DNA from: a virus | IMG/VR virus record: IMGVR_UViG_3300030104_006883 | Coordinates: 32,001-96,000 of that record | Strand: one strand, 5' to 3' | Length of the DNA: 64,000 nucleotides | Shown: positions 15,719 to 41,700 of the stretch, in pieces | How positions within the stretch are numbered: the stretch's first letter is position 1 | Layout: every line of letters begins with the position of its first letter | Position numbers and translations under genes: made by a program | The notes under the pieces: model-generated | What the model was told of the DNA's origin: nothing | The model's input: only the letters and a program-made list of their open reading frames with translations | Database searches by the model: none

Positions 15719-16338
15719 TGCTTCACAACCCATACAAAGTAGTACAAATGTTCGAAGAAGAGATCGCTCACTATACGGGAGCCCCCTATGCTGTCTCTGT
15801 CAATAGCTGCACTAATGCTTTATTTTTGGCTTGTAAATGGGCAGGGGTGGAAGGAGAGGAGGTTGTACTTCCAAAGAGAACCTATCTATCCCCGCCGCAA
15901 TCAGTTATGCAAGCGGGCGGCAAGTTAATATTTGAAGATCTAGATTGGCAAGGAATCTACCAACTTAAGCCGTTCCCAATCTACGATGCTGCGAAGAGGC
16001 TAACATCAAATATGTATATTCCCGGCACTCTTATGTGCTTATCTTTCCATATTAAGAAACATTTAAAAATAGGCAAAGGAGGCATGATTCTTTGCGATGA
16101 TATTGATGCTGTTAAGTGGCTAAAAGCTAGAAGATATGAAGGAAGGACAGATGGGATGAAATACCACGAAGACATGATTGATGAAGAGGGGTGGAATATG
16201 TATATGACACCTGAGCAAGCGGCAAGAGGATTAACTTTAATGCAAAATTATCCGGAGCACATGCCGGATATACCGGAAGATCCTCCGTATAGAGATCTGA
16301 CAGAATTTGAATTATTTAAAGATATAGAGGTAAGATAA
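15718..16338 (+). CDS. miniaturised DegT/DnrJ/EryC1/StrS PLP aminotransferase
   Basis: FEEEIAHYTGAPYAVSVNSCTNAL, YDAA, SFHIKKHLKIGKGGMI (Lys retained); only 206 aa. Confidence 0.75.
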   Translation: MLHNPYKVVQMFEEEIAHYTGAPYAVSVNSCTNALFLACKWAGVEGEEVVLPKRTYLSPPQSVMQAGGKLIFEDLDWQGIYQLKPFPIYDAAKRLTSNMYIPGTLMCLSFHIKKHLKIGKGGMILCDDIDAVKWLKARRYEGRTDGMKYHEDMIDEEGWNMYMTPEQAARGLTLMQNYPEHMPDIPEDPPYRDLTEFELFKDIEVR

Positions 16339-20853: not shown

Positions 20854-21799
20854 GGATTGGGGTAGTACTTATGGAGATGCGATTAACCACTATTGGCGTT
20901 TTGAAGATTTTTCAGAAGATGATGGTAAAAATATATTTTTTTTAGGACTTTCCACATCTACTTCTGAATTCAAAGAAAAATATAAAAATTATGAAAACAA
21001 AATGTTTTTTAACACCGAGCACCCCTGCGCCTTTTATGATACAGACCGTAAGATTATAGCTCGAAGCGCTAATTTAGATGGATATTACTCAAAAATTTTC
21101 ACACAAGACCCATACTCTGCCGCATGGTTAAACGAACTACAAGGTAGGGATACTTTTACTTTGCTATACCCAACACCAATTAATAAAAAATATATTGTAG
21201 AAAAGAAACAACAAAAGGAGTATGATGTTTTATATTGGGGAGGGATACACAGCCAAGTACATGTAGACATACTAGATGCAATGAAAGATTTTAAGTATAA
21301 CTTCCTATCTTTAGGACCCGCTCATTGGGGAATTCAGCATATGCCGACGGCTAATTTAATGACGCATCAAAACGCACCAAGAGAAGAAATGTGGCACTTG
21401 ATAAGAAAAACGAAAATAAATGTTATGGCGAACTTGCTTTTTTTAAACCCTGCACATGTGAGTAGAATTAAAAAAATAAAGGGATGGGAGAAAAATGAAG
21501 CTTTTTCACATCTTGATTTGGGTATCCTCCCACAAATAAAATCAAGACCATTCGAATCGGCGGTTAATAGATGCTTAATGCTTGTTAAAAGAAATCCTTG
21601 GAATATAATCGAATATTGGTTTGAGCCTGATAAGGAGTTTGTCTACTATGACAACGAAGAGGACCTGCCTGAAATTATAAACGGAATATTGTCGAATTGG
21701 GAGCATTATGAGAATATAATTGATAATGCTTTTGAAAAAGCAATAAATAACTATACAATTGACCACTTTATGGAAATAGTGAAGGGAGAGTGCATATGA
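20840..21799 (+). CDS. CgeB/YkvP-like glycosyltransferase
   Basis: C-terminal QIKSRPFESAVNRCLML...FEPDKEFVYY..EEDL pattern. Confidence 0.65.
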   Translation: MKIVEDWGSTYGDAINHYWRFEDFSEDDGKNIFFLGLSTSTSEFKEKYKNYENKMFFNTEHPCAFYDTDRKIIARSANLDGYYSKIFTQDPYSAAWLNELQGRDTFTLLYPTPINKKYIVEKKQQKEYDVLYWGGIHSQVHVDILDAMKDFKYNFLSLGPAHWGIQHMPTANLMTHQNAPREEMWHLIRKTKINVMANLLFLNPAHVSRIKKIKGWEKNEAFSHLDLGILPQIKSRPFESAVNRCLMLVKRNPWNIIEYWFEPDKEFVYYDNEEDLPEIINGILSNWEHYENIIDNAFEKAINNYTIDHFMEIVKGECI

Positions 21800-22206
21800 G
21801 TGATAGAAAATATCTACCGACTTTATCGGAGCTAGTTGATCGGCTTTCAATAGTGCAGCTTAAAGAAGTCTTCATAACAGAACATAAGGAAGAGTATGCC
21901 AAAGAGATAGAGGCAATAGTTCACGATATACAACTAATCTTAGACGAGTGTGAGCAGATAGATGCAGAGACGATTCGTGCAATTGTTGTGTTATCACAAA
22001 TGAACTTGCATATTTGGCATAATGAATCAAACTATCGAAAAGGAATTAAAGATGGTAACAACCTTGAATTGACCCATGGATTGAACGGTATCAGAAATGT
22101 AGCGAAGAACAAAATCCAAGAATTGAACGGGGGCAGGAAGGACTACAAGATAGACTGCTTGGCGGCAGAGTTCGAAGATTGGGAGATCTCTTGGAAAAAG
22201 GAATAA
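21796..22206 (+). CDS. all-helical conserved protein, DUF4254-like
   Basis: LSELVDRLSIVQLKE...MNLHIWHNES...NGIRN. Confidence 0.5.
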   Translation: MSDRKYLPTLSELVDRLSIVQLKEVFITEHKEEYAKEIEAIVHDIQLILDECEQIDAETIRAIVVLSQMNLHIWHNESNYRKGIKDGNNLELTHGLNGIRNVAKNKIQELNGGRKDYKIDCLAAEFEDWEISWKKE

Positions 22207-22682
22207 TATACGATGTGCTTGAGCACTCCCCGGACGCGTATACAGACTATAGAGGCGACCTGTGGACTCTCTGGCAGGCTGGAGTTAGCGAGCTTGATTT
22301 ACCCTACAATCATGACAAAGTGTCTACTTCTAGAAAGAATGTTCTCCGTGGAATACATGGAGATTTTAAGTCTCATAAACTTATTACATGCTTGTACGGA
22401 GAGATATATTTTGTTATAGTTGATAATAGGAAAGAGTCGCCGACATATAGACAGTGGGACTCTACTATATTGAGTGATAAAAATAGAAAACAAATTTTGC
22501 TGCCCCCTGGAGTAGGCAATGGTTTTTTGGTTCTGAGCGATAACTCTGTATTTCATTACAAATGGTATTATTATGGAGATTATCCTGATGTAGGGGACCA
22601 GTTTAGTATAAAATGGAACGACAGCGAGTTGGGCATTAACTGGCCTATCGGCAATCCGATTCTTTCCCCAAGAGACGCATAA
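22179..22682 (+). CDS. rmlC: dTDP-4-dehydrorhamnose 3,5-epimerase family cupin
   Basis: DYRG, SRKNVLRGIHG, KLITCLYGEIY.VIVDNRKESPT, GNGFLVLSD, WND..LGINWP; start may be TTG 22191. Confidence 0.9.
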   Translation: MGDLLEKGIIYDVLEHSPDAYTDYRGDLWTLWQAGVSELDLPYNHDKVSTSRKNVLRGIHGDFKSHKLITCLYGEIYFVIVDNRKESPTYRQWDSTILSDKNRKQILLPPGVGNGFLVLSDNSVFHYKWYYYGDYPDVGDQFSIKWNDSELGINWPIGNPILSPRDA

Positions 22683-22702: not shown

Positions 22703-23242
22703 ATGAAAAAAGCACTTATTCTTACACACGCTGGGTTTCAAGACCACGAAGTAATTTATCCATATCATAGTCTAAAAGAGAACAACTTTGAAGTTACTGT
22801 TGTAGCTAACCAGCTAGGAAGGTTTTACGGTATTCTAGGTTGTCATATGGTTTGTGATGTCTTAACAACAGACTTCAACGACTCTAAAGAAAGAGCAAAA
22901 TATTTAGAGTATGATTTATTAGTTGTTCCAGGGGGTGTGAAGGCACTAGAAAAGCTAAGGCTAGAAGAGGGAATAGTTGAATTTGTTCGTGAATGGAATG
23001 AACTAGATAAGACTATCTTCTCCCTATGTAACGGCGCTCAACTGCTCATTACGGCAGATGTTGTCAGGGGCAAGACCGTATCAGGGTATTATGCTATTGA
23101 AGCGGACATTAATAATGCGGGAGCGACTTATCATAGAGGCCCTGTTGTTGTTGATAGTAATATAGTCTCTTCCCCACATTATGATTTTATGGGAGAGTGG
23201 ATGAGAACTGGATATCAAACACTTGAGGAAAGAGGCAAGTAG
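22703..23242 (+). CDS. DJ-1/PfpI family protein
   Basis: GFQDHEV, LLVVPGG, SLCNGAQLL (Cys elbow), VVVDSNIVSS. Confidence 0.85.
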   Translation: MKKALILTHAGFQDHEVIYPYHSLKENNFEVTVVANQLGRFYGILGCHMVCDVLTTDFNDSKERAKYLEYDLLVVPGGVKALEKLRLEEGIVEFVREWNELDKTIFSLCNGAQLLITADVVRGKTVSGYYAIEADINNAGATYHRGPVVVDSNIVSSPHYDFMGEWMRTGYQTLEERGK

Positions 23243-23245
23243 CTT

Positions 23246-23908
23246 GTGAGAAAATTTGATAACATTGTTAAAAAACCATGGGGATACGAGTACGTAGCAT
23301 ACGAAAACGAACATTGTGCCTTGTGGTTTTTGCACATAAAGCACCAACACAGTACGTCGATGCATTGTCACCCAAATAAAACAACTGGTTTGATTTTATT
23401 AGATGGGCTCGCTGAAGTTTCTTTTATAGGTGATACGTTTCTTCTTAAACCTAATCACAAAATTATGATAAGAAAGGGCCTATTCCACTCTACAAAAGCA
23501 ACAAGCAAGAGTGGGATTAGCTTATTTGAAATAGAGACTCCGGTTGACAAGTTCGATCTCGTTAGGCTGCGAGATAGTTACGGTCGAGAAGGTAAGCCCT
23601 ATGAAGATGTCAGTCATGAGTACCCAAAGCTAGAAGAGTGCTTGAGAATTGAGGAGCCTCCAAGAGGCGCAGAAAATGTATACAGGACTGGTTCGACAAC
23701 CCTTAGAGTATGCAACATAAAAGACACGTCATTTTTTGACGATATAGAAGATGATAAAAATGTAATGTTTTTAAGAGGTGGCATTGTAACTGAGTACGGA
23801 ATTAATGTCGCTGGTCCTGGTGATATTGTATTAAGTAAAGTTATAAAAGAGTTGACAAGTGTTTTTAATAAAATTAAAATGGAAACGATTATAATGGTGT
23901 TTGAATAA
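23246..23908 (+). CDS. cupin, mannose-6-phosphate isomerase-like
   Basis: VKKPWGYE, TSMHCHPNK, GLFHS, FEIETP. Confidence 0.7.
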   Translation: MRKFDNIVKKPWGYEYVAYENEHCALWFLHIKHQHSTSMHCHPNKTTGLILLDGLAEVSFIGDTFLLKPNHKIMIRKGLFHSTKATSKSGISLFEIETPVDKFDLVRLRDSYGREGKPYEDVSHEYPKLEECLRIEEPPRGAENVYRTGSTTLRVCNIKDTSFFDDIEDDKNVMFLRGGIVTEYGINVAGPGDIVLSKVIKELTSVFNKIKMETIIMVFE

Positions 23909-24306
23909 TGAGTGCAAAAGACTATCCACCCGGATTTGAAAAAGATACAAACAATCTTGCTATTGACTTTGATGGCGTGATTCACAACTATGATAAAGGC
24001 TATCACGACGGCACCTGCTATGGTGATCCAATTGAAGGCTCCCTTGAGGCTATAAGAAGCCTGTCAAAAGACTATAATATAGTTATTTTTACGGCCAAGG
24101 CTAAACCATCTAGGCCACTAGTAAACGGAAAGACTGGAGTCGAACTAGTTCAAGAGTGGCTTGAAAAGCATGATGTGATGCAATATGTGGCCGAGATCAC
24201 CGCTGAAAAGCCCCGATCGCAGATCTACATAGATGATAAAGGATACCACTTCCAGAACTGGGAAGACACTCTGAAATACCTGGAAGAGAAAGATGGAAGA
24301 ATTTAG
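23908..24306 (+). CDS. HAD-superfamily phosphatase
   Basis: AIDFDGVIH, FTAK, KP, YIDDKG. Confidence 0.8.
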   Translation: MSAKDYPPGFEKDTNNLAIDFDGVIHNYDKGYHDGTCYGDPIEGSLEAIRSLSKDYNIVIFTAKAKPSRPLVNGKTGVELVQEWLEKHDVMQYVAEITAEKPRSQIYIDDKGYHFQNWEDTLKYLEEKDGRI

Positions 24307-25126
24307 ATTAAAGGTCTTTGAAAGGGCCGCTCTTTGTAGAAACTTCGAACAGTACGTTTTCGATGGCATACGAAACAAAATGTTCAATTTTCCAATTTAT
24401 CTTTCGGCAGGACAGGAGTATATATCAGCGTCTATAGCCGAAGTCATGAGTGAAAAGGGCATTACCCCGAACATTTTCATTCAGCATAGAGGGCATTCAA
24501 CTTACTTGTCATATGATGCGCCTATAGAAAAACTAATAGACGAGTTACTCGGAAGAGAAACTGGATGTGCCTATGGTATGGGCGGCTCGGCCTCTATACA
24601 TTCGAAAGAAAAGAATATCTTTGGGCACGATGGGCTTATGGGATCACAAGCTCCTATCGCTGTTGGACACTGCTATTCTACGCAGCATCCCACTATAGTG
24701 CATCTTGGAGACGCATCTGCGGAAGAGGACTATGTTCTCGGCGCTCTTGGATGGGCCTCTACTAAGAACCTTCCCATACTTTTTGTGGTAGAGGATAATA
24801 ATTTGTCTATTTTGACGGAGAAGAAGGTGCGTAGAAATTGGGAAATGCACGACGTAGCGCAGGCATTCCGCATGAAGGGAAAAGATATCTCTGATGATCC
24901 CATTGAAATAAAGGAAGCACTGGATGATGTTTTTAATGGCCCCATGTTATTAAATATTAATACCCATAGGAAGTTTTGGCACTCCGGCGCGGGCATTGAC
25001 GACGAAGATACGTTTGATAGATATGAAACAGAGATGGAACTGTTGGGGGACAGAGCCAAAGAAATAGATAAGCAATATAAACAAAAGATAAATGAACTAT
25101 GGAAAAAACAGTTAGAGACACAATAA
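24293..25126 (+). CDS. TPP-dependent dehydrogenase E1 alpha-like subunit
   Basis: YLSAGQE, QHRGH, GMGGS, TPP motif GDASAEE...VEDNNLS. Confidence 0.88.
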   Translation: MEEFRLKVFERAALCRNFEQYVFDGIRNKMFNFPIYLSAGQEYISASIAEVMSEKGITPNIFIQHRGHSTYLSYDAPIEKLIDELLGRETGCAYGMGGSASIHSKEKNIFGHDGLMGSQAPIAVGHCYSTQHPTIVHLGDASAEEDYVLGALGWASTKNLPILFVVEDNNLSILTEKKVRRNWEMHDVAQAFRMKGKDISDDPIEIKEALDDVFNGPMLLNINTHRKFWHSGAGIDDEDTFDRYETEMELLGDRAKEIDKQYKQKINELWKKQLETQ

Positions 25127-26004
25127 AAGAGCTAACCAGGGGACACCTAGAATCGGGTAGTAGATGTTTCGGACAATGCTTGACTGCTGTCGGGTGGGTA
25201 GGGGGAACCCTTCCTGAAATGTATGAAGAAGACGGCATGGTAGAACTTTCGATGGCTGATGTTGCTGCGAGCGGCTTCTTAACTGGCTTGGCTTTAGCTG
25301 GAGAGAGGCCAATTTATGTGGTAAGATATCAAGGATTTCAATGGTTTAATGCATCTATTATAACAAATTATGCAATGAAGTCTAAAGAGATATGGAAGCG
25401 CCCATGCCCCATGCTGATAAGAAGCATAGCAATGGAAGGAGGCATAGGCCCAGTAGCAGGTTCATCGCACCATTCGATATACCAAAGGATGCCTGGAGTT
25501 AAGGTAGCTTCTCCGATGACGCCTGGTGAGTATCGAGAGGTGTATGAGAGGTTTATGGAAGAGGATGAAGTTTATTATGTGTCCGAGCACAGGAAGAGTT
25601 ACGATAATACTCAAGAACTTGCTGATACCATACACGAAGAGGCTGATATAACCTTATTCCCTATCTCCATAACAAGGTTTGCGGCAGAAGAAGCTAGACA
25701 AAAACTAGAGGAGCAGGGCCTGAAAGTTAACGTAATTCATCAAGTTTGGATAAAGCCGTTTATTTTTCACCCTGAGTGGGCGACAGCGTTAAACAATTCT
25801 CGATTTGGTGGTATAGTATTAGACGATGATTATGAGGAAGGCGTTGCTAGTAGCATTGCCCATAGAATGATAATGGGCTCTACCTCAAAAGTTGCAACAA
25901 TGGGCTTACCGCATAGGACTGCCGGGTTCCACCCAAGGGTGGACAACTTGCCACCAAACGCAGACCAAATTATTGATAGAGTTAAGGAAATTTGTAATGT
26001 ATGA
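25099..26004 (+). CDS. TPP-dependent dehydrogenase E1 beta/transketolase C-terminal-like subunit
   Basis: ELSMAD...GLALAGERPI, GPVAGSSH, PGVKVASPMTP, VSEHR, VIHQVWIKP. Confidence 0.85.
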   Translation: MEKTVRDTIKELTRGHLESGSRCFGQCLTAVGWVGGTLPEMYEEDGMVELSMADVAASGFLTGLALAGERPIYVVRYQGFQWFNASIITNYAMKSKEIWKRPCPMLIRSIAMEGGIGPVAGSSHHSIYQRMPGVKVASPMTPGEYREVYERFMEEDEVYYVSEHRKSYDNTQELADTIHEEADITLFPISITRFAAEEARQKLEEQGLKVNVIHQVWIKPFIFHPEWATALNNSRFGGIVLDDDYEEGVASSIAHRMIMGSTSKVATMGLPHRTAGFHPRVDNLPPNADQIIDRVKEICNV

Positions 26005-27151
26005 TTGGCCGCTAATAAATGATAATATTTCGCAAAGAGATAAAGAGATACTTTCTCATTTTATTCTAAAAAGCAATAGGTTTACTAATGGGCCTAAAGT
26101 AGCTGAATTCGAGGAAGAGTGGTCTAAGTGGCTCGGAGTAAAGTACAGCGTGATGGTCGGGTCTGGAGCCGCTGCTAACTATATAACAACTTCCATAACG
26201 AGAGAGTTAAAAGGATCAGGCGGAGAAATTATTGTTCCACCTATTGGATGGGTATCTGATATATCATCCGTAATCAACACCGGATTCACGCCTGTGTTTG
26301 TAGATGTCAATCTGGCAACCATGGCTATTGCCTATGAAAACATTAAAGCAGCCATAAATGAAAATACGAAAGCGATTGTTCTTGTTCATGCGCTTGGTTT
26401 TAATGGAATTAATGATAAAATTATTTCTTTGGCGAAGGAGCATGATCTGCTGTTATTAGAGGACTGCTGTGAAGCTCATGGTGCGACTTATAATGGCAAG
26501 AGGGTTGGTTCTCTTGGTGATATGTCTTGTTTTTCTTTTTATTTTGGCCATCATATAACAACTATTGAAGGCGGGATGGTTTGTACAAATGATGAAGAAA
26601 CGTACCAACTTGCGAGAATGCTTAGATCTCATGGCATGACACGCGAAGCCTCTAAAGAAACACAGGAGAAATACGCCAGTCCGGACCTTAACCCTTTGTT
26701 TACTTTTGCTGTGCCTGGATACAACATGAGGAGCACTGAAATAAATGCTGTTTTAGGTCTAGAGCAAATTCGAAGGTTAGATTACAATGTACACACACGA
26801 CAACAAAATTTTGATACCTGGATAAACAACTTAGATAGTGAGAAGTATTATACTAAGTTTGCAGATGCCGGTAACAGCAATTTTGCTCTTCCTTTAATCT
26901 TAGCTGAAGGGAGCACAAAAAAAGATGTTGTATGCGCAATTCTTGAAGAAGAAAAAGTAGAGTATAGACTTGGCACAGCAGGCGGCGGCAATCAGGCCAG
27001 ACAGCCTTATTTAAAAAACTATGAGCATAAGATAGTTGAAGAGTTGAAGAATTCCAACTATATCCATGATTATGGGTTGTACATTGGCAATCATACTGAT
27101 TTATCGGAACAGCAGATTAAAAATCTATGTGCAAGGTTAAATGATGTTTAA
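25997..27151 (+). CDS. ColD-like GDP-4-keto-6-deoxymannose 3-dehydratase (DegT fold, His replacing the PLP Lys)
   Basis: LLLEDCCEAHG, SFYFGHHITTIEGGM, LRSHG, GYNMRSTE; lacks the Cys-rich Fe-S insert of RfbH/E1; ATG 25997. Confidence 0.8.
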   Translation: MYDWPLINDNISQRDKEILSHFILKSNRFTNGPKVAEFEEEWSKWLGVKYSVMVGSGAAANYITTSITRELKGSGGEIIVPPIGWVSDISSVINTGFTPVFVDVNLATMAIAYENIKAAINENTKAIVLVHALGFNGINDKIISLAKEHDLLLLEDCCEAHGATYNGKRVGSLGDMSCFSFYFGHHITTIEGGMVCTNDEETYQLARMLRSHGMTREASKETQEKYASPDLNPLFTFAVPGYNMRSTEINAVLGLEQIRRLDYNVHTRQQNFDTWINNLDSEKYYTKFADAGNSNFALPLILAEGSTKKDVVCAILEEEKVEYRLGTAGGGNQARQPYLKNYEHKIVEELKNSNYIHDYGLYIGNHTDLSEQQIKNLCARLNDV

Positions 27152-28115
27152 AAACCAAAAGGTCTTAGTTACTGGTGGCTCTGGCATGATTGGCAGAGAA
27201 CTAGTATCATTATTACTAGAAAAGGGTGCTAGCGTCTATATCGCGGACCTCAAGCAACCAGAGGAACTAAAAGATAAAGTTACATTTGTTAAGGTAGACT
27301 TGCGAGAGTACTCCTCTTGTTTACAGATCTGTGAAGGTATGGACTATGTGTTTAATTTGGTGGGAATTAAGTGCTCGCCAAGAGTCTGCATTGAGGAGCC
27401 AGCGAAGATAATGGGTCCTATGATGCAATTTAACACGAACATGCTTGAGGCAGCAATGCACCACAATGTAAAATGGTACCTATATACAAGCACAGTGGGT
27501 GTTTACCAACCGGCAGAAGTCCTAAGAGAGGACGATGTTTGGTCAACACAACCCTCAAAGAACGATTGGTTCGGAGGCTGGGCAAAGCGAATGGGAGAAC
27601 TTCAATGCCAAGCGTACCAGAAGCAGTACGGAGAGGGGAAATGCAGTATCGTAAGACCTGCAAATGTTTATGGTCCCCACGACAACTTTGACCTAGATAG
27701 TGCAATGGTAATACCTTCTCTTATTAGGAAAGCATTTAGTAACGATGTTTTACAAGTATGGGGCGATGGCTCATCTATTAGAGACTTTATTCACGCGAGA
27801 GATGTTGCCAGGGGTATGATTTTTGCGGTAGAAAATAAAATAACAGAACCACTTAATCTTGGCTCCGGAGATGAAATTAGCATCAAAAGAATAGCAGAGG
27901 CTGTAGCTAAAGAGGCAGATGTAAAAATAGAATGGGACACTTCCAAGCCAACAGGAGACCACAGAAGAGTTTTTGACATGGAAAGAGCAAAGTCTCATGG
28001 TTTCCAGCCCCAGATCTCAATCGAAGAGGGCGTCAAAGAAACAATTGACTGGTACTTGAAAAATAAATCAATGGCTGATTCTGGCAAAGACGTGTTTAAA
28101 TTGTTGGAGAAGTAA
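27141..28115 (+). CDS. GDP-fucose synthase-like extended SDR lacking the catalytic Tyr
   Basis: TGGSGMIG, RPANVYGPHDNF, VIPSLIRK, VWGDG..IRDFIH; YxxxK site reads GGWAK. Confidence 0.75.
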   Translation: MMFKNQKVLVTGGSGMIGRELVSLLLEKGASVYIADLKQPEELKDKVTFVKVDLREYSSCLQICEGMDYVFNLVGIKCSPRVCIEEPAKIMGPMMQFNTNMLEAAMHHNVKWYLYTSTVGVYQPAEVLREDDVWSTQPSKNDWFGGWAKRMGELQCQAYQKQYGEGKCSIVRPANVYGPHDNFDLDSAMVIPSLIRKAFSNDVLQVWGDGSSIRDFIHARDVARGMIFAVENKITEPLNLGSGDEISIKRIAEAVAKEADVKIEWDTSKPTGDHRRVFDMERAKSHGFQPQISIEEGVKETIDWYLKNKSMADSGKDVFKLLEK

Positions 28116-28697
28116 TTGAAAAAGTTTAAAGTTTTAATAACTGGCTGCTCTTCTGGGCTAGGGCTCCATTTGGCCAATAAATTTGAAAAGGAAGGTCATT
28201 TTGTTTTTAGACATGAAGGCAAAAAGCACTTTGATTTGTCAAAAATAGAAGAAGTTAAACACTTATCAGAAGAAGCAAAAAAGCTCGAAATAGATGTCTT
28301 AGTTAATAATGCAGCGATGGTATGTCCAAGCATTGTTTTAGAGGAATATGAAGATGACTTAATTGATTCAATGATAGAGGTAAACTTGAAAGCTCCAATT
28401 GTATTAACTAAAAAATTACTTCCGACTTTAAAGAATCTTATAAATATTAATTCCATGGTTGGGCTGGAAATAAAGGCACCTAGAACACTCTACTCTGCCA
28501 CTAAGTGGGGACTGAGAGGCTTTTCAAATAGTCTAAAGAAGGAAAGCAATCTGTCGGTTTTAGACGTATACCCCACGAATATAAAAACAACCCCGGATAG
28601 GGTAAATGCAATGGATATCGATATGGTTGTTGATGAGATCTACAGCGCGTTTGTTGAAGAAAAAGAAGAACTAATATTGGACGGAAGAAAAAGATGA
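28116..28697 (+). CDS. classical short-chain dehydrogenase/reductase
   Basis: TGCSSGLG, VLVNNAA, INSMVG, YSATK; TTG start. Confidence 0.85.
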   Translation: MKKFKVLITGCSSGLGLHLANKFEKEGHFVFRHEGKKHFDLSKIEEVKHLSEEAKKLEIDVLVNNAAMVCPSIVLEEYEDDLIDSMIEVNLKAPIVLTKKLLPTLKNLININSMVGLEIKAPRTLYSATKWGLRGFSNSLKKESNLSVLDVYPTNIKTTPDRVNAMDIDMVVDEIYSAFVEEKEELILDGRKR

Positions 28698-29647
28698 AAA
28701 GAATTTTAATTTGCGGAGCAACAGGGTTCATAGGTAGAAACCTCTTAGATTTCTACTCTAAAGATAAGAAATATAAAATTAGGGCTACCCACTTTAAGAG
28801 ACCGGCTTTATCTGGTTATGAAGACGTTGAGTGGGTACAGTGTGATCTTCGCGATCCAAAGCAGGTGTCAGATGTCCTGCAAGACGTAGATATAATTATG
28901 CAGTTTGCTGCCACCACAACTGGAGCAAAGGATATTGTCTCTAAACCGTATATCCATGTCACGGACAATGTTATTATGAATTCTTATCTCTTACGAGAGG
29001 CTTTTGAGCAAGGAGTGGAGCATTTTATTTTTCCAAGCTGCACAATAATGTACCAAAAATCAGAAAAAGCCTTAAAAGAAGACGACTACAACCCTTCGGA
29101 TGATATTTTGCCTTTTTATTATGGAGCGGGGCACACAAAGGTGTACTTAGAAAACATGTGTAAGTTTTATGCTGGTTTTGGAAAAACCAAGCACACGGTT
29201 ATTAGGCACTCTAATTTATACGGACCTCATGATAAATATGATTTAGAAAAGTCTCATGTAACAGGAGCGACAATTACTAAAGTCATGACTTCTAGAAATG
29301 ATGTTGTTAGCGTATGGGGAACCGGGGAGGAGGCGAGAGACCTACTGTATATAGAAGATTTTATTTCCTTTATAGAGGCAGCGATAAACAATCAAGAAAG
29401 CGACTATGAGCTTTATAACGTTGGCTTAGGTAAGGGTATAAAAATTAAAGATTTAGTTAAAAAAGTGATACAATGTTCTGGTAAAAATTTAAAAATTGAA
29501 CATGACTTAACGAAACCAACGGTGCCTACTTCTTTATTTTTAGACTGTACAAAGGCAAAAAAAGAGCTTAATTGGGAGCCAAACTATACTTTAGAAGGTG
29601 GTTTAAAAGAAACAATCAAATGGTATAAGGAAAATTATAATGGGTAA
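28694..29647 (+). CDS. GDP-fucose synthase-like extended SDR lacking the catalytic Tyr
   Basis: GATGFIG, FPSCTIMY, RHSNLYGPHD, VWGTG..ARDLLY; YxxxK site reads AGHTK. Confidence 0.75.
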   Translation: MKRILICGATGFIGRNLLDFYSKDKKYKIRATHFKRPALSGYEDVEWVQCDLRDPKQVSDVLQDVDIIMQFAATTTGAKDIVSKPYIHVTDNVIMNSYLLREAFEQGVEHFIFPSCTIMYQKSEKALKEDDYNPSDDILPFYYGAGHTKVYLENMCKFYAGFGKTKHTVIRHSNLYGPHDKYDLEKSHVTGATITKVMTSRNDVVSVWGTGEEARDLLYIEDFISFIEAAINNQESDYELYNVGLGKGIKIKDLVKKVIQCSGKNLKIEHDLTKPTVPTSLFLDCTKAKKELNWEPNYTLEGGLKETIKWYKENYNG

Positions 29648-30434
29648 TCTAAAAACAGACATGGACTCGTTTGAATTAAGTGAGAAGCAACTTGAATTTT
29701 ATTACGAAAATGGGTATTTATTAATCCCTCAAGTATGGGGGAGAGAGGAAATCGACATTATTAGAAAAGACCTAGATGAGGCCGCAGAGGGCCATTTTAC
29801 GGTTAGGCTAGATATGCATTTTCATAAAAGTATAAAACAGGCACATAGAGGAAAAAAGATGTGCGACATTGGGGATGCTATATGTAATGGACGAGCAGTG
29901 CCAATAGCTGCAACTACATTTTTTTGCAAGCCAAATAATCCACTAGAATATGGATCAATATGGCATCAAGACAATTTTGCCCCTATGGCTCCTAACGGAA
30001 ACAATTATATAAATTTAGCTATAGCTGTTGATGACGCCGACGAAACAAACGGATCTTTGATCGTGATCCCTGGAAGCCATAAATTTGGTATGCTGTCTTT
30101 TGACCCTAGCCCAAATTTCTCACGAGATGAGAAGGGTCGTATAGTACAGGTTGCACCGATTGGAGATGCCAAAAAGCTGAGTGATTACACAAACGCTGAT
30201 GGAATCGTACTTTCCGACGACCTTCCGACAGTGCAGTTAAAGTATAATGCAGGAGATGTTCTGGTAGTAAATGGATTGTTGCTACACAAGGCTGATAAAA
30301 ATATGCATCCAACTCGATGGAGGCGTACAATATACGCGGTTTATATCAAGGAGAAGGAGCCTTTTTGGCCAGGATGGACCGCGCAAAGAAAACTTCTAGA
30401 AAGATATGATTCTCCGAATTATAACAAAGGATAA
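29640..30434 (+). CDS. Fe(II)/2-oxoglutarate dioxygenase, PhyH family
   Basis: WHQDN (HxD), NGSLIVIPGSH, AGDVLV...LLHKA (distal His), RR. Confidence 0.85.
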   Translation: MGNLKTDMDSFELSEKQLEFYYENGYLLIPQVWGREEIDIIRKDLDEAAEGHFTVRLDMHFHKSIKQAHRGKKMCDIGDAICNGRAVPIAATTFFCKPNNPLEYGSIWHQDNFAPMAPNGNNYINLAIAVDDADETNGSLIVIPGSHKFGMLSFDPSPNFSRDEKGRIVQVAPIGDAKKLSDYTNADGIVLSDDLPTVQLKYNAGDVLVVNGLLLHKADKNMHPTRWRRTIYAVYIKEKEPFWPGWTAQRKLLERYDSPNYNKG

Positions 30435-30437
30435 AAA

Positions 30438-31445
30438 TTGAAGAGAGCAGTTATTACAGGAATCACAGGTATGGTTGGTTCTCATCTGGCAGATTATCTG
30501 CTTGAGAACACAGATTGGGAAGTGTATGGACTGGTTCGATGGAATGACAAGATGGATAACATTGAACACCTCATGCCACTAATCAATAACAAAGAAAGAA
30601 TTCATCTTTTAAATGCGGATATTAATGATCTGGCTTCGCTATTAACTTGCTTTAAGGAGTCAAATCCGGACTATGTTTTTCATTTAGCTGCACAAAGCTA
30701 CCCAAAAACAAGCTTTACCGCACCTCTTGAGACATTAGAAACAAATATCCTTGGTACGGCGAAAGTCCTCGAAGCAATAAGAGTATTAAAGCAAGATCCG
30801 GTGGTACACGTATGTGCGTCTTCGGAAGTTTTCGGTCGAGTGCCAAAAGAATTTTTACCAATTCACGAGGATATAACTTTTCATCCTGCCTCTCCCTATG
30901 CGATTTCAAAAGTAGGAACAGATCTTGTTGGTAGATTTTATGGAGAGGCTTATGGCATGACTGTGATAACGACTCGAATGTTTACCCATACGGGTCCACG
31001 AAGAGGGGATGTGTTTGCTGAATCAACGTTTGCAAAGCAAATTGCCATGATTGAAAAGGGCCTCCAAGAACCAGTTGTTAAAGTAGGAAATTTGGAATCT
31101 CTTAGAACTTGGTCCGATGTTAGAGATGCTGTTAGGGCTTATTACCTGCTGGTCACGCAGGATCCGAAAGCCGGAGAGTATTACAATATTGGTGGATCGT
31201 TTACTTGCACTATCAGGGAGATGTTGGATCATTTAATATCTCTATCAACAGTTAAGGATATTAAAGTTGAGACCGATCCTGAAAGACTACGGCCAATCGA
31301 TGCAGATTTGCAAGTGCCCGATACGACGAAATTCAAGTCGCACACTGGATGGGAACCAGAAATATCTTTTGAAAGAACTATGTTGGATCTGTTAAACTAT
31401 TGGAGAGAGCAAGTTAATTCTGGCCAAAGGTTTTTGTCTAGATAA
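30438..31445 (+). CDS. gmd: GDP-mannose 4,6-dehydratase-like (Gmd/Rmd group)
   Basis: ITGITGMVGSHLA, HLAAQS, ASSEVFG, PASPYAISK, RMFTHTGPRRG, GNLES.RTWSDVRD, RPID. Confidence 0.8.
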   Translation: MKRAVITGITGMVGSHLADYLLENTDWEVYGLVRWNDKMDNIEHLMPLINNKERIHLLNADINDLASLLTCFKESNPDYVFHLAAQSYPKTSFTAPLETLETNILGTAKVLEAIRVLKQDPVVHVCASSEVFGRVPKEFLPIHEDITFHPASPYAISKVGTDLVGRFYGEAYGMTVITTRMFTHTGPRRGDVFAESTFAKQIAMIEKGLQEPVVKVGNLESLRTWSDVRDAVRAYYLLVTQDPKAGEYYNIGGSFTCTIREMLDHLISLSTVKDIKVETDPERLRPIDADLQVPDTTKFKSHTGWEPEISFERTMLDLLNYWREQVNSGQRFLSR

Positions 31446-31455
31446 GGACGGACAG

Positions 31456-32190
31456 ATGTCTATTTTAGTTATTGGAGAAAGTTGTCTCGATGTGTTTAGG
31501 TATGGTGAGTGTAACCGGATGTGCCCGGAAGCTCCTGTGCCAGTGTTTAACCCTATAGAAACCACAGAAAACGGGGGGATGGCAACTAATGTCTATACAA
31601 ATCTTATTAGTATGAAATCGGAAGCAGATATTCTTACTAATGAAAATTATAATTCTATTAAGAAAATAAGATTTATAGATCATAGGACCAATCATATGTT
31701 TATGCGCCTCGATGAAAGGGATGGGGATTATGGTACGTGTCCGGTTGAGGACATAGACTTCGATAAATATCAAGCTATAATAGTATCTGATTACAACAAA
31801 GGATACCTTTCGGAAGAGCATATAAATTATATTGGTAGATCCCACGATAGTGTCTTTTTAGACACGAAAAAAATACTGGGGGATTGGTGTGAGAGTGTAA
31901 AATTTATTAAATTTAACAGCGCAGAATACGAAAGGTCTAAACCATATATAAACAGGACTATTGAAGAGAAGCTTATTGTAACTCTTGGCCCCCAGGGCGC
32001 TCGGCATAATGGCACGATCTACTCGGTGCCCAAAGTAGATATCAAGGACACCTCCGGAGCAGGAGACACCTTTGTAGCTGCGCTTGTTAGCGAATATATA
32101 GATAGCAAAGACATAGGCAAAGCTATAGAATATGCAAATAGGTGCTCAACTGTTGTAGTTCAAAAGAAAGGGGTTGCAACTATATGGTGA
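31456..32190 (+). CDS. HldE/RfaE kinase domain (PfkB family), stand-alone
   Basis: VIGESCLD, PEAPVPV, GGMATNV, IVSDYNKG, DTSGAGDTF. Confidence 0.85.
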   Translation: MSILVIGESCLDVFRYGECNRMCPEAPVPVFNPIETTENGGMATNVYTNLISMKSEADILTNENYNSIKKIRFIDHRTNHMFMRLDERDGDYGTCPVEDIDFDKYQAIIVSDYNKGYLSEEHINYIGRSHDSVFLDTKKILGDWCESVKFIKFNSAEYERSKPYINRTIEEKLIVTLGPQGARHNGTIYSVPKVDIKDTSGAGDTFVAALVSEYIDSKDIGKAIEYANRCSTVVVQKKGVATIW

Positions 32191-32579
32191 TTTGGACAAA
32201 TGGTTGTTACGATGTTTTACACAGAGGGCACGTTGAATTATTTAAATACGCGGCATCTTTAGGCACAAAATTGATAGTTGGAATAGACACTGACGAAAGA
32301 GTCGCCGCCGCCAAAGGCCCTAGCAGGCCTTTTAATAATTTAGAAGACAGAAAGTTTCTTCTACAGTCCATTCGCTATATAGACGAAGTTTATGAGTATT
32401 CATCTGACGCAGAATTAGAAAATCTATTGGTTGAAAATAATGTTGACACGATGGTGATTGGATCGGACTGGGAAGGAAAAGGTGTTATTGGTGAGAAACT
32501 AGTTAAAAATATTAAATTTTTTGATAGAATAGAGGGGTACTCTACAACGAAGGTTTTAGAAAATGGTATACGTAGTTGA
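32184..32579 (+). CDS. HldE/RfaE nucleotidyltransferase domain, stand-alone
   Basis: WTNGCYDVLHRGH, LIVGIDTD, KGPSRP, GSDW, GYSTT; ATG 32184. Confidence 0.88.
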   Translation: MVIWTNGCYDVLHRGHVELFKYAASLGTKLIVGIDTDERVAAAKGPSRPFNNLEDRKFLLQSIRYIDEVYEYSSDAELENLLVENNVDTMVIGSDWEGKGVIGEKLVKNIKFFDRIEGYSTTKVLENGIRS

Positions 32580-32886
32580 CATAGATGGGACTATTTGTAG
32601 CTCTACAGTAAGCGGAGACTACGAAGACTCAGCACCGTACATGCATAGAATAGAAAAAATCAATTCTTTGTATGAAGATGGGCACACCATAATATACTTC
32701 ACCGCAAGAGGAATGGGAAGACATAACAATAATCCGGTAAGAGCCGTTCAGGATTTCTATTCTATGACAGAGGTGAGGCTTAGGCAGTGGGGAGCTAAGT
32801 ATCATGAGCTAATACTTGGGAAACCAGCAGCCGATGTTTATATAGATGATAAAGGGATAGAAGCAAATGAGTTCTTCAACAAATAA
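32563..32886 (+). CDS. small HAD-superfamily phosphatase (capsule-cluster type)
   Basis: VVDIDGTIC, YFTARG, LGKP, YIDDKG. Confidence 0.8.
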   Translation: MVYVVDIDGTICSSTVSGDYEDSAPYMHRIEKINSLYEDGHTIIYFTARGMGRHNNNPVRAVQDFYSMTEVRLRQWGAKYHELILGKPAADVYIDDKGIEANEFFNK

Positions 32887-33238
32887 AACTCCCCCCATAA
32901 AGTTTGTTAAAAAAGGATGGGGATATGAAAAATGGATTGTTAATAAAAAAGAATATTGTGGAAAGCTATTGTTTTTTCTACAAGGCAAAAGATGTTCTTG
33001 GCATTACCATGTTTTGAAAGACGAAGTGTTTTATCTACAGTCTGGTAAGATGATGTTATACTATTCTGAAAATGATGATATAACAAAGGCTAAACAACTA
33101 ATATTAAACCCTGGGGACAATTTTTATGTTTACCCAGGCCTGAGACATCAGATGGTTGCGTTGGAAGATAGCGAACTATATGAATTCTCAACAGAACATT
33201 TTGACAGTGACTCGTACAGAGTTATAAAAGGTGATTAG
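32867..33238 (+). CDS. cupin, sugar isomerase-like
   Basis: VKKGWGYEKWIVN..YCGKLL, SWHYH..KDEVF, HQM, EFST. Confidence 0.75.
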   Translation: MSSSTNKTPPIKFVKKGWGYEKWIVNKKEYCGKLLFFLQGKRCSWHYHVLKDEVFYLQSGKMMLYYSENDDITKAKQLILNPGDNFYVYPGLRHQMVALEDSELYEFSTEHFDSDSYRVIKGD

Positions 33239-34200
33239 TGAAATTAGTAGTTATAACAGGATGTTTGGGGTTTATTGGCTCTCACGTTACTCGTCTTTGC
33301 CTAAATAAGGGCTGGAGAGTGTACGGAATTGACGATCTTACTTATGCGGCCAACAAAGAACTGCTAGAAGAGTTCTACTCGTTTAATAAAAAGGAAGATA
33401 ACTTTGTTTTTAAGAAAGCAAATATTTGCGATTTAAAATCTATACCCGATTGCGACTATATCATAAATACAGCCGCAGAAACTCACGTTGGTAATAGTAT
33501 AATCGACAGTGAAGATTTTATTAAAAGCAATATTAATGGAGTTAAGAATATTCTTGATATCATAAAAAGCAAGCCAACAAATGTTGGACAAAGGCCAGTG
33601 CTGTTTCACTTTAGCACGGATGAGGTATATGGGGACATTATAAAAGGCGCTCATACTGAGAAAGATCCTCTTAAGCCAAGCAACCCATACTCTGCCTCTA
33701 AAGCATCGTCAGACATGCTGATTGAAGCCTGGGCTAGAACTTATGGAATTAATTACGTTATTTTGCGTCCAACTAATAATTATGGTACCCATCAAAACGC
33801 AGAAAAGCTAATACCACTTTCAGTCAAACTCTTACAGAGAGGAAAAAAGATACGATTGCACGACAGAGGAGAGCCGTATAGAAACTGGCTACATGCGGAA
33901 GATACCGCAAGTGGAGTCATAAGCATTATTGAATCTGGCGTTTTAAACGAGATTTTTAATATCGCTGGAGGATTTGAGCAGAAAAACAAAGAAACCGTTA
34001 AAAAAATAATAGAATGTTATTTCTCCCATAGTGTAGATTGGAATGATTATATTGATTTGGACTACGCTAGACCAGGACAGGATGTTAGATATTCGCTGGA
34101 CGACAGCAAACTAAGGAGCCTGGGTTGGGAGCCGAAAAAGAATTTTGATGAGGAAATAAGTGCTATTGTTTGGCACTATAAAAATAATTTTAAATGGTAA
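33238..34200 (+). CDS. rmlB: dTDP-glucose 4,6-dehydratase family
   Basis: TGCLGFIGS, DDLTYAA, AAETHV, FSTDEVYG, PSNPYSASKAS, NNYG.HQ..EKLIP, RPGQDVRY. Confidence 0.9.
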   Translation: MKLVVITGCLGFIGSHVTRLCLNKGWRVYGIDDLTYAANKELLEEFYSFNKKEDNFVFKKANICDLKSIPDCDYIINTAAETHVGNSIIDSEDFIKSNINGVKNILDIIKSKPTNVGQRPVLFHFSTDEVYGDIIKGAHTEKDPLKPSNPYSASKASSDMLIEAWARTYGINYVILRPTNNYGTHQNAEKLIPLSVKLLQRGKKIRLHDRGEPYRNWLHAEDTASGVISIIESGVLNEIFNIAGGFEQKNKETVKKIIECYFSHSVDWNDYIDLDYARPGQDVRYSLDDSKLRSLGWEPKKNFDEEISAIVWHYKNNFKW

Positions 34201-38718: not shown

Positions 38719-41700
38719 ATGGCGAAGAAAATAAAAGGTTTGACCATTCCAGTATCGCTCTATTGGACGACTGAAAAGAGTTTTGTTGACAGCGACAACA
38801 AGAGAAGGCTTTCCGAAGAGCTACAGAGCATTATAAGAAAAAAAGCTGCTGATATATTAGATTCGGAATACAGCCTATCCCCAGGAGCTTATTTTGATTT
38901 ATCCAATGGTACCGCGTTCTTGCTCCCCTCAGCTAAAAGCAAAAAGAGCTTTTCTTACCAGCCCGCCACCTCTGAAATGCAAGTTAAGGTTTTCTTACCT
39001 TCAAGCAAGGTTAAGAGTTTAGGAATTACTAAGAAATCTGACTTACCTACGACTTATTTGTTTGATTCTACCGATTATCTTATTTTAGTTTTTGATGAGT
39101 CGTTTAGCGATAGCTCTCCAATAATGAAAAAGTTTGAAGAGTTTAAGGCCATTTTGAAATCGATGGTAGATACGGCGGACAAGTTTGGTGTAGACCTTTA
39201 TAAAGAAAAGTATATCCTAGAAAATTTTGACGCTTGGACTTCAGGAGTTAGGGACGACATACAAGAATTTTATAAACAAAAAAAACAAAGTGCCCAACAG
39301 ACAGGGTTTGCCAGTCTATACGACATGGGTCCGGTTATTCCTATCCTGGGAATAACTTTCCCAAACACAAAAAATATTAACGACTACAGGTCCGAATTGG
39401 CCGAGTCGGTTCCTACGCTCGGCCAATTTATGGACACACTACCCGGCCTGGCACCGGGACAGACAGCCCGAAGCCTTAGTGAGGAAGAATCTAAAGAGTT
39501 TGAGATTACTCGAAACAGAGAGGTAAATTTAAATAATGATGATTATGTAGCAAAGATTGGTTTTAAAAAAAATCACTTCGGCTTTACTTTCATAAAGAGC
39601 ATTCCAGAAGATGCGGTTAGATTTGGAGAGGCTGAATTCGAAGCTCAATTTGCTTTGAGCGCAAATCCTTTAAGTGAGGAGGAGTTGAAAGAACTCGAAA
39701 TCCCGCCCGCGCAGGCTGGAGATGCTGAAACACTTGCCAATAATCAATTATTAAACCCTACTCCAAAAAGAACTCAAAATACTATTGGCGGCGAATATTA
39801 TCCAACGTTTGTAAATTACATTAGAAACATGAACGAGATAATAAAAGAGTATCCTGCACAAAGTGATGATGTTTATGGAGTGGATAGGCAGGTAGACTTG
39901 ATGCCGTTCTTGGAGATGTATCACTATCCACAAGACATACCGCTAAAAGACTTAGAAAAGATAGGCAGGTCTTTCGATGAAGCAGAAGAGAATTATAAGA
40001 CCGCTGCACAAGTAGACACAGAAAACAAAGAGCTACACGTTCTCAACGCGAAAATAGCAGACAAACTTCATAATCAAGTGGTCAACGCACCGTTTACACG
40101 ACAAGACGCGGCAGACACACTAAAAGAAAATGGCGGCTTGCATGGCGCTTATGGTTCTCTGATGCAAGATGGGTTTAATTTTGATTCATTAAATTATGAG
40201 TATGATGTGCCCTGGCTAAGTTATCCTGGCAACTCTAAAATTAGACCATCCCACATTATTAGCGATTCGATAGTTTCTCAAATAAGTTCTGGAAAAATGT
40301 TGTCTAGAATTAAGACAATCAAAGACATAGAAAATCTGATTGTTAAGCGATTAACAATTAGAGATCTTTTGATCATGGCACTAACTTGTGCCGATAGGTA
40401 CGGTACCCCGAACATCAATGTTCTGGAAAGAATTGATAAGTTCTTGATGGCCCTTGGTAACACAAGAGTAATGCCTGCTTTTAGAAAGACCACTCCAATT
40501 GGAGATTTCTGGGTGGATTTCACGGATCAGATCGAAGGGGTCATTAAAGAAACTGTAGAAAAAGCGATAGTCGAGTTCTTTAAGCAAACCTTGGTGATGA
40601 TAGCTTCTTGTAACGTCGAGGGGGTTGGGAAGCAATTTAAAAAAGGCACAGCCGATCTTGGAAACTTTTTAACAAACAAAGACGGCGCTCTTCTAAAGTT
40701 TGCTGATGATGTTTTAACCAAGTCTCTACAGAAAACACCTAATTCTCAAAATTTACTTAGAACTAAGAATGAGTTGGAAAGAATAGCTAAAATTGTTACC
40801 ACAAATACAACTCCGCTAGAATTAAGAGAATGTCTCCAAGGAAACGCAAGCGACGCTGTGATCGCTGCGATAGCGGAAGGGCTTGGTAGGGAACTTGGCT
40901 TTAACGCCGAGAAGTCTGCTGTTGAATCATCTTTAAAGCAAATGGGCAGAGAGGATTGTGATTTAGCACTATTAGATGAAAGAATTGAGGAATATGCACT
41001 AGAGACAGCAGATACTAGCACGGAGCTTTGTGCGGACTTCAAAAGGCAACTTAAAGAAAAATATTCAAACTATGATGATAATTTACTAGAAGAAATTATT
41101 GGCAGCTTGCCGGATAAGGACCCAGAAACTGCACTTGCGTTCGATCCGGAATTCGCTTTGCAACCTTGCGAGCTTTTAAAAATCCCTGACCCTGCTGGTG
41201 ATTTTATGAACCAGAGCGCATACGAAAGTGCGTTTACCAGCGTGAAGACTAAATTTACTTTTGAATTAAATGCTTTTCCAATTTTCCTACTTGATTCGGG
41301 CGCTGTAAGAAAGCTAAATATTAAAACTGATTTGGTCGAAATTGATGATGGCACGTTTATGCCAACCATGACTTCTAACAAGGGGGCGCTTGAAGATAAC
41401 AGCTTGGGGTTATTGAAGGAATACAAAAAACTTCTTGATGACGACACCCGCGCTTTAGTACAGGTTGTCTCTAGCGATTCTAGGCAGGATGTAAAATACA
41501 ACGCAGCTAATCCTAAAGCTACAACTCTTCTGATGGAAAATCCTAATATTCCTCCTGTTCTTCTAAAAATTCTTGAAGACCTAGCTGCTGAAGAACCTGA
41601 TGCAGTGGCAAACTTGTCTTTGAAAAAGAAGGTCAATTCTCAAGATTTGAAAAATTCTAATATTGTTGATGGCTTAGAGTATGATAAAGAGATTATACTT

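Follow-up and report, generated by a model that had tools for sequence, protein, structure and literature searches.

An E1-type thiamine diphosphate enzyme pair linked to a ColD-like 3-dehydratase in a phage glycan island, a candidate for C-branching of a heptose

Ghosh, Xiang and Raushel showed that Campylobacter jejuni HS:5 and HS:11 make GDP-3,6-dideoxyheptoses by a four-enzyme route (PMC10440746). Sugars can also be branched at carbon by E1-type pairs of thiamine diphosphate (ThDP) enzyme subunits, for which AviB1/B2, Plm8/9, EvdU5/EvdS3, the aldgamycin pair and KbDH-alpha/beta are the precedents (PMC4802897, PMC10338323, PMC12247030). A 2025 review assigns E1-type (alphaKADH2) branching to actinomycete secondary metabolism and YerE-type branching to lipopolysaccharide, and reports no structure for E1-type branching enzymes (PMC12247030). 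Here we analyzed a 64,000-nucleotide stretch of viral DNA (the window, bases 32001-96000 of IMG/VR record IMGVR_UViG_3300030104_006883, which is 185,927 bp long and complete by CheckV), and within it an operon that combines an E1 alpha/beta pair with a ColD-like 3-dehydratase. An earlier note on this sequence had read eight genes of the operon as a GDP-linked, mannose-based pathway to a C4-branched octose. The association of a stand-alone E1 pair with a 3-dehydratase survived our analysis, whereas the mannose base, the octose and the supposed rarity in viruses did not.

The best reading of the operon is that the E1 pair catalyzes C-branching of a 4-keto heptose, for which we estimate a probability of roughly 55%; this figure covers an acceptor, a donor and a position of attack that we infer. 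All eight genes are present in the order and at the positions first described, all on the + strand, with starts and stops that overlap or abut, and the functional unit reaches past them on both sides, from 22179 to about 33238. Families were assigned to the window proteins with Pfam and NCBIfam profiles:

22179-22682, + strand: RmlC-like cupin epimerase, GDP-heptose type (C3/C5); Pfam dTDP_sugar_isom 3.7e-39
22703-23242, + strand: DJ-1/PfpI-family protein; Pfam DJ-1_PfpI 4.2e-35, PfpI/PH1704-type by PDB search
23246-23908, + strand: bicupin-like protein; Pfam MannoseP_isomer 2.4e-07
23908-24306, + strand: small HAD-type phosphatase with a DxDxV motif; DFDGV in the sequence, weak GmhB match
24293-25126, + strand: E1 alpha-like ThDP subunit (PP domain), 277 amino acids (aa); Pfam E1_dh 3.9e-18
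25099-26004, + strand: E1 beta-like subunit (PYR and C-terminal domains), 301 aa; Pfam Transket_pyr 3.7e-11 and Transketolase_C
25997-27151, + strand: ColD-type pyridoxal phosphate/pyridoxamine phosphate (PLP/PMP) 3-dehydratase, 384 aa; Pfam DegT E 5.9e-81 (open reading frame, ORF, called at 25892-27151)
27141-28115, + strand: SDR1, Fcl/GME-like extended short-chain dehydrogenase/reductase (SDR); Pfam Epimerase/GDP_Man_Dehyd, motif WFGGWAK
28116-28697, + strand: short classical SDR, 193 aa; Pfam adh_short 6.6e-26, with TGxxxGxG, NNAA and YSATK
28694-29647, + strand: SDR3, Fcl/GalE-like extended SDR; Pfam Epimerase, motif FYYGAGHTK
29640-30434, + strand: PhyH-family Fe(II)/2-oxoglutarate dioxygenase; Pfam PhyH 1.2e-18, HxD...H present
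30438-31445, + strand: SDR of the GDP-D-glycero-D-manno-heptose 4,6-dehydratase type; Pfam GDP_Man_Dehyd E 3.9e-77
31456-32190, + strand: PfkB-type, HldE-domain-I-like heptose kinase, 244 aa (short); TIGR02198 2.5e-30
32142-32579, + strand: HldE-domain-II/TagD-like nucleotidyltransferase; TIGR02199 4.1e-28, TIGR01518 8.7e-24
32563-32886, + strand: small HAD phosphatase, DIDGT; TIGR01689 1.7e-10
32867-33238, + strand: small cupin (KGWGYE) of the sugar-activation block; Pfam Cupin_2 4e-07

Viral contigs were sampled through their ColD-like and dehydratase genes, a choice that is unbiased as to E1, and yielded 68 non-redundant loci. These share a collinear cassette, RmlC - X - ColD - SDR1 - ... 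- SDR - heptose dehydratase - kinase, in which slot X holds either DJ-1, cupin, HAD, E1 alpha and E1 beta (the long pair with its partners) or a minimal ThDP pair. This mini pair, for example at 8839-9999 of locus L097, has two small subunits, one E1_dh-like (208 aa) and one Transket_pyr-like (176 aa), and lacks the C-terminal domain. A ThDP pair was found in 58 of the 68 loci (18 long, 40 mini); the other ten had neither, and at least five of those have truncated flanks. Six loci (L008, L013, L014, L016, L050 and L076) were among those that carry both, the mini pair of L076 being a 397-aa fusion. An initial classification of ColD loci without the long pair as E1-lacking was rejected, as the mini ThDP pair sits in the same slot. 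Linkage of a ThDP pair to the His-type 3-dehydratase and the 4,6-dehydratase, the yersiniose logic of the earlier proposal, is thus near-obligate across related loci, and the E1 beta and ColD genes overlap. Because a ThDP enzyme is near-constant with this 3-dehydratase clade, linkage is the strongest evidence that the pair acts on the 3-deoxy-4-keto product. Plasmids of the roseobacters Parasedimentitalea and Sulfitobacter have ordinary colitose loci (gmd-fcl-colD-manC), and these showed no ThDP enzyme; a search for a cultured plasmid-borne carrier returned only housekeeping proteins as E1 alpha matches and, as ColD matches, ordinary colitose loci without ThDP enzymes. A C-branching enzyme of another type, a TylC3-like NDP-sugar C-methyltransferase (Methyltransf_14), is encoded in some mini-pair cassettes as well (5305-6522 of L121; L104).

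The long pair travels with fixed partners. In the phage these are the DJ-1 (22703-23242), cupin (23246-23908) and HAD (23908-24306) genes, directly left of the eight-gene block and outside the region first noted. Neighborhoods of 73 loci sampled through E1 were surveyed by tblastn and de novo ORF clustering. The E1 pair lay within glycan operons in all 73 loci, and the members counted were E1 beta (67), E1 alpha (66), a phosphomannose isomerase (PMI)-like cupin (66), DJ-1/PfpI (65), ColD-type or His-type DegT enzymes (48), GHMP kinase (36), B12-radical SAM (34), Fcl-like SDRs (33), RmlD-like SDR (30), HAD (24 and 17), heptose dehydratase (23) and RmlC-like (21). Partners were then contrasted in the 49 loci with adequate flanks, 16 with the long pair and 33 without; these loci are related, so that the counts are not independent events. 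DJ-1 occurred in 15/16 versus 0/33, bicupin in 16/16 versus 0/33, the small HAD of the 23908 type in 11/16 versus 0/33, and PhyH in 5/16 versus 1/33. The short classical SDR was likewise confined to long-pair loci (10/16 versus 0/33), whereas both Fcl-like SDRs are kept in cassettes with either ThDP pair.

Two of the partner proteins have invariant residues: the nucleophile Cys of DJ-1 (C109) is invariant in 65 homologues, and the AlphaFold2 model of the cupin (mean predicted confidence, pLDDT, 92.5) is bicupin-like, with an N-terminal PMI/KdgF-like metal cupin whose H40, H42 and H81 are invariant. Foldseek and ESM Atlas searches for the function of the bicupin returned only generic cupin or bicupin, small PMI and oxalate-decarboxylase-like matches. 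The partnership extends to a distant E1 pair (L079, 30% identity), which likewise has genes for a PMI-like cupin and a DJ-1 protein at its flanks. A possible role of the DJ-1/PfpI protein, bicupin and small HAD is to provide or modify the donor or the branch.

The 3-dehydratase was correctly recognized as ColD-like. Its best solved relative is Escherichia coli ColD (2gms, E 5.9e-58), and its FGHH motif aligns to SHH of ColD, with a His at the position of His188. It also has no Fe-S insert, being 384 aa long and near ColD (chain 390), unlike the Fe-S E1 dehydrase (chain 437). The gene most likely starts at the ATG at 25997, which overlaps the E1 beta stop within ATGTATGA; the TTG at 25892 is not favored.

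The base sugar had to be revised. The gene at 30438-31445, previously labeled Gmd, scores 389 bits to C. jejuni 7us5 (E 1.9e-115) versus 152 bits to E. coli Gmd (1db3), and 175 bits to the Gmd equivalog TIGR01472, which has a cut-off of 415. The RmlC-like protein at 22179-22682 scores ~165 bits to the C. jejuni GDP-heptose 3-/3,5-epimerases 7ang/7m14/8dco versus 96 bits to RmlC. By these dehydratase and epimerase matches the pathway is judged to be built on a heptose rather than on the mannose of colitose-type chemistry, and the sugar is most likely GDP-D-glycero-D-manno-heptose. A heptose base turns the predicted branched product from an octose into a nonose. Taken together, the dehydratase, the RmlC-like epimerase, the His-type 3-dehydratase and the Fcl-like SDRs correspond by family to the GDP-3,6-dideoxyheptose enzyme set of C. 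jejuni.

The term GDP-linked is based only on the families of the tailoring enzymes and not on an encoded guanylyltransferase: no gene of the ManC/HddC type is present. A SIS isomerase, a GHMP kinase and an NTP_transferase (ManC/HddC type) were all sought in the phage genome and none was found. Instead, the sugar-activation block at 31456-33238 is of the ADP-heptose type (PfkB kinase, HldC/TagD-like nucleotidyltransferase, HAD and small cupin), and the PfkB-type kinase gene comes next after the dehydratase in most related cassettes. The phage has two HAD phosphatases; the GmhA/HddA/GmhB/HddC supply set is found in bacterial carriers such as Pelagibacter.

From these assignments a pathway can be proposed. 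The 4,6-dehydratase (30438) would form a 6-deoxy-4-keto-heptose and the His-type ColD-like enzyme (25997) would remove the C3 hydroxyl to give a 3,6-dideoxy-4-keto-heptose, two steps for which homology is strong, and the RmlC-like epimerase (22179) with the Fcl-like SDRs would be able to complete a C. jejuni-like pathway. By context and precedent, E1 alpha/beta would decarboxylate a 2-oxo acid, taken by default to be pyruvate, and would add the resulting acyl-anion equivalent to the C4 ketone to yield a 4-C-acyl tertiary alcohol, on the model of YerE in yersiniose and the E1-type pairs. The short classical SDR (28116), which has a canonical Tyr-Lys motif, is the best candidate for reduction of the branch ketone, and hydroxylation of the product by PhyH is possible. 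Such a route would end in a branched nonose, the heptose analogue of yersiniose, to be passed to the glycosyltransferases of the island. The best solved match of PhyH is AviO1 (4xaa; E 3.8e-6, 30 bits); this likeness was considered as functional evidence and dropped because 30 bits is too weak. SDR1 and SDR3 have no Tyr four residues before the Lys (WFGGWAK and FYYGAGHTK) and so no canonical YxxxK; the motif of the Fcl-like SDR family is [WY][FY]GG(A)WxK, and SDR1 of the window has Phe where its orthologues have Tyr.

The alternative that survives best is that the end product is an unbranched NDP-3,6-dideoxyheptose and that the DJ-1/cupin/HAD/E1 module acts on a phosphorylated small molecule or a sugar phosphate, which we regard as rather unlikely. 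Under this alternative the E1 pair might, for instance, add a C2 unit to an aldose phosphate in the manner of DXS or transketolase; PMI-like isomerization and dephosphorylation would then give another higher-carbon sugar or a non-sugar substituent of the same glycan. Counterparts of all four published 3,6-dideoxyheptose enzymes, with Fcl-like SDRs of altered motif for the C4-reductase, are present and have no need of the E1 pair, the PMI-like cupin and HAD phosphatase are typical of sugar-phosphate chemistry, a GHMP kinase is the next commonest neighbor (36 loci), and heptose-activation genes recur beside distant E1 pairs. A kinase and a phosphatase are required for NDP-heptose synthesis regardless, however, and the mini pair occurs without any cupin, HAD or DJ-1. 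Moreover, the long or mini ThDP pair lies directly 5' of the ColD-type gene, often overlapping it, in a collinear cassette, and the known E1-type relatives work on NDP-keto sugars.

A further alternative arises from the E1 beta subunit, which, aligned to Geobacillus E1 beta (1w85_B), has Asp54 at the position of the ThDP-activating Glu. Asp is found in 68 of 68 family members, whereas Glu is kept in housekeeping E1 beta, in glycan-locus outgroups, in fused forms and in the mini pair. To our knowledge, the activating Glu is all but universal in ThDP enzymes. The substitution in every member, together with the very long branch of the family and the Glu in every other E1 beta compared, could mean that the pair is impaired or is no carboligase, with a structural or scaffold role or a plain decarboxylase activity. 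We consider this very unlikely, since many bacterial and phage clades strictly keep the ThDP-Mg motif and the remaining cofactor motifs, a carboxylate is retained, and the invariance of the Asp suggests selection for function. In E1 alpha the ThDP-Mg motif is intact (GDAS...EDNN) and, with the other cofactor motifs, is conserved in 72 homologues. An invariant Asp combined with conserved cofactor motifs argues for a pair that is active but atypical.

The name given automatically to such genes in source databases, a dehydrogenase E1, does not fit. No E2 (2-oxoacid_dh) and no lipoyl domain was found in the whole 185,927-bp record, in line with the absence of E2/E3 pointed out earlier, the related loci whose surroundings were inspected likewise showed no E2/E3 or lipoyl partner, and E1 alpha scores 106 bits against the pyruvate dehydrogenase equivalog TIGR03182, for which the cut-off is 394. 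A search of 1.8 billion representatives set the E1 family apart at >=155 bits from the next matches at ~85-103 bits. Context was readable for the five nearest E1 alpha relatives outside the family, and all five (5/5) belong to glycan loci: their neighbors are SDRs, DegT enzymes, glycosyltransferases and heptose genes of the SIS/HldE/GHMP kinds, never an E2. No names are recorded for the clusters of these outgroup E1 alpha proteins. The claim that glycan-locus E1s are clearly nearer than housekeeping E1s by bit score was withdrawn, as plasmid-borne PdhA/AcoA score in the same range as the glycan-locus E1 alpha relatives; identity to PdhA/AcoA is 26-28%. For that reason we built a tree of alpha plus beta subunits in which the E1 family and its glycan-locus outgroups were joined by three E1s encoded beside an E2 or lipoyl gene (Priestia Pdh, Paracoccus Aco and a Thermus E1). 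It gave three well-supported groups that meet at one node: the E1 family, on a very long branch, the outgroups from glycan loci, and the dehydrogenase E1s. The E1 family is thus not nested in Pdh/Aco, the placement that would have spoken against a sugar-branching role. Because there is no E2/E3, because scores are far under the equivalog cut-offs and because the family forms its own clade, the pair is not a dehydrogenase-complex E1. That it is a central-carbon auxiliary metabolic gene, a pyruvate or acetoin dehydrogenase E1 working with host E2/E3, is hardly credible: automatic names in the source databases and the 26-28% identity point that way, but the phage encodes neither an E2 or E3 nor a lipoyl protein, the score is ~106 bits against 394, the clade stands apart from E1s with E2 neighbors, 73/73 loci are glycan operons, and the alpha subunit is shortened to 277 aa.

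C-branching of a 4-keto heptose by the E1 pair remains the reading we prefer, and several points weigh against it. The likeness to E1-type (alphaKADH2) pairs, which like the phage pair are stand-alone heterodimers without E2/E3 among NDP-deoxy-keto-sugar genes, is one of architecture and context, and the three-group tree assigns no sister group to the E1 family. A tertiary alcohol at C4 would leave no task for a C4 reductase, but the cassette conserves two Fcl-like SDRs. In place of GmhA, HddA and HddC, the phage carries an ADP-heptose-type kinase and nucleotidyltransferase. With Asp in place of the activating Glu, catalysis may differ. Finally, we know of no characterized branching pathway with a DJ-1 protein, a PMI-like cupin or a phosphatase, and the strict linkage to DJ-1, cupin and HAD hints at chemistry beyond the simple model. 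A bolder extension, tentative and on balance improbable, is that DJ-1/PfpI-bicupin-HAD-E1 alpha-E1 beta is a self-contained, horizontally mobile branch module with Asp-activated ThDP and, as donor, a 2-oxo acid other than plain pyruvate that the partners make or unmask. Such a module would place an undescribed C-branched nonose on the surface glycans of SAR11 and other abundant marine bacteria, and infecting phages would use it to rewrite the host surface or glycosylate virions.

The E1 family is widespread. About 2,800 public proteins match E1 alpha, and more than 120 clusters, mostly from marine metagenomes, are at least 75% identical to it. Related loci at 52-65% identity occur in Pelagibacteraceae, SAR116, Methylopumilus, Marinisomatales and marine gammaproteobacterial genomes. 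The earlier note knew of no such route in a virus, but related loci lie in 42 IMG/VR contigs, and the route is not rare in viruses. Viral and bacterial clades interleave inside the family, which suggests that it has been exchanged repeatedly between phages and bacteria. In a complete Pelagibacter genome the E1 pair is the only heterodimeric E1 and lies within a GDP-heptose locus, beside GmhA, HddA, an HddC-GmhB fusion, a His-type DegT, an SDR and a B12-radical SAM gene. In the complete genome of Pelagibacter sp. Uisw_130 (L074; CP159814.1, 946681-967520) the long E1 pair is accompanied by DJ-1, cupin, GmhA, HddA, the HddC-GmhB fusion, the His-type DegT, an SDR and two radical SAM genes, and this strain is a possible experimental handle.

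The eight-gene block lies at the center of a one-strand glycan island of ~27 kb (~8.5-35 kb) that contains glycosyltransferases and sugar-nucleotide enzymes. The phage also has genes for PhoH and for a baseplate wedge protein of the T4 type, as well as two ORFs of ~2,900 aa. No close relative was found among isolated phages; Synechococcus phage Bellamy gave a 63% nucleotide match over the dehydratase only, and the baseplate wedge has ~31% protein identity to Microcystis and Flavobacterium phages (myoviruses). The giant ORFs, at 38719-47562 (2,947 aa) and 51423-60113 (2,896 aa), flank the baseplate wedge genes directly downstream of the island. Three other genes of the island were recorded. An RmlB-like dTDP-glucose 4,6-dehydratase at 33238-34200 (288 bits versus a cut-off of 365) closes the sugar block and may point to a second deoxysugar pathway. 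A 206-aa ORF at 15718-16338, between FkbM-type and DUF268-type methyltransferase genes, matches the DegT aminotransferase profile only in part, over two separate stretches, and may be a truncated or split aminotransferase. The 138-aa protein at 21790-22206, with only a weak DUF7164 match, has 78-87% identity in 18 viral loci and is absent from bacterial loci, and is thus a phage-specific, highly conserved member of the cassette.

The review confines E1-type branching to actinomycetes, so a heptose-based E1-type system of phages and SAR11 with the Asp and the DJ-1/cupin partners would be new. If our reading is true, E1-type branching also takes place on heptose in the most abundant ocean bacteria (SAR11, SAR116 and marine Gammaproteobacteria), in their surface glycans, and in the large phages of these bacteria, and a sugar that nobody has described would be predicted. 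The analysis also corrects what is likely a systematic misannotation, in which genes named pyruvate/acetoin dehydrogenase E1 can be read as central-carbon auxiliary metabolic genes. The Asp in place of Glu and the constant company of DJ-1 and cupin are enzymological peculiarities that lend themselves to testing, and the swapping of surface-glycan genes between phage and host bears on receptor masking and superinfection exclusion.

Compared with the C. jejuni HS:5/HS:11 pathway (4,6-dehydratase, PLP C3-dehydratase, C5-epimerase and C4-reductase; PMC10440746), the phage has the same families in one operon. Homology is clear for its dehydratase (389 bits) and epimerase (165 bits), and its 3-dehydratase is His-type. 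The C. jejuni C4-reductase has a Ser-Tyr-Lys triad, whereas the Fcl-like SDRs of the phage are without canonical YxxxK; the activation genes of the phage are of the PfkB/HldC type, not HddA/HddC; and its cassette adds the ThDP pair, DJ-1, bicupin, HAD, short SDR and PhyH. GDP-colitose synthesis (Gmd, ColD, ColC) provides the closest solved relative of the 3-dehydratase, ColD, which in the phage is also followed by Fcl-like SDRs. The phage differs in having a heptose-type dehydratase in place of Gmd and no ManC, and true colitose loci are without a ThDP enzyme.

CDP-yersiniose synthesis (4,6-dehydratase, E1/E3 3-dehydrase, YerE and YerF; PMC9306805) follows the same logic of 4,6-dehydration, His-type PMP-dependent 3-deoxygenation, ThDP-dependent addition at C4 and reduction of the branch by an SDR. 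It does so on a CDP-hexose, with an Fe-S 3-dehydrase and its reductase partner, whereas the phage has a heptose context and a ColD-type 3-dehydratase. The branching enzymes themselves are also of different make, YerE being a single-chain flavoprotein of the decarboxylase superfamily that resembles acetohydroxyacid synthase and the phage enzyme being E1_dh plus Transket_pyr on two chains, not TPP_enzyme_N/M/C. The actinomycete E1-type pairs serve secondary metabolism on dTDP- or UDP-linked hexoses or pentoses, whereas the phage pair belongs, among heptose genes, to loci for surface glycans in marine bacteria and to phages. It is further set apart from them by a shorter alpha subunit, by Asp for the activating Glu, and by its obligatory DJ-1 and cupin partners.

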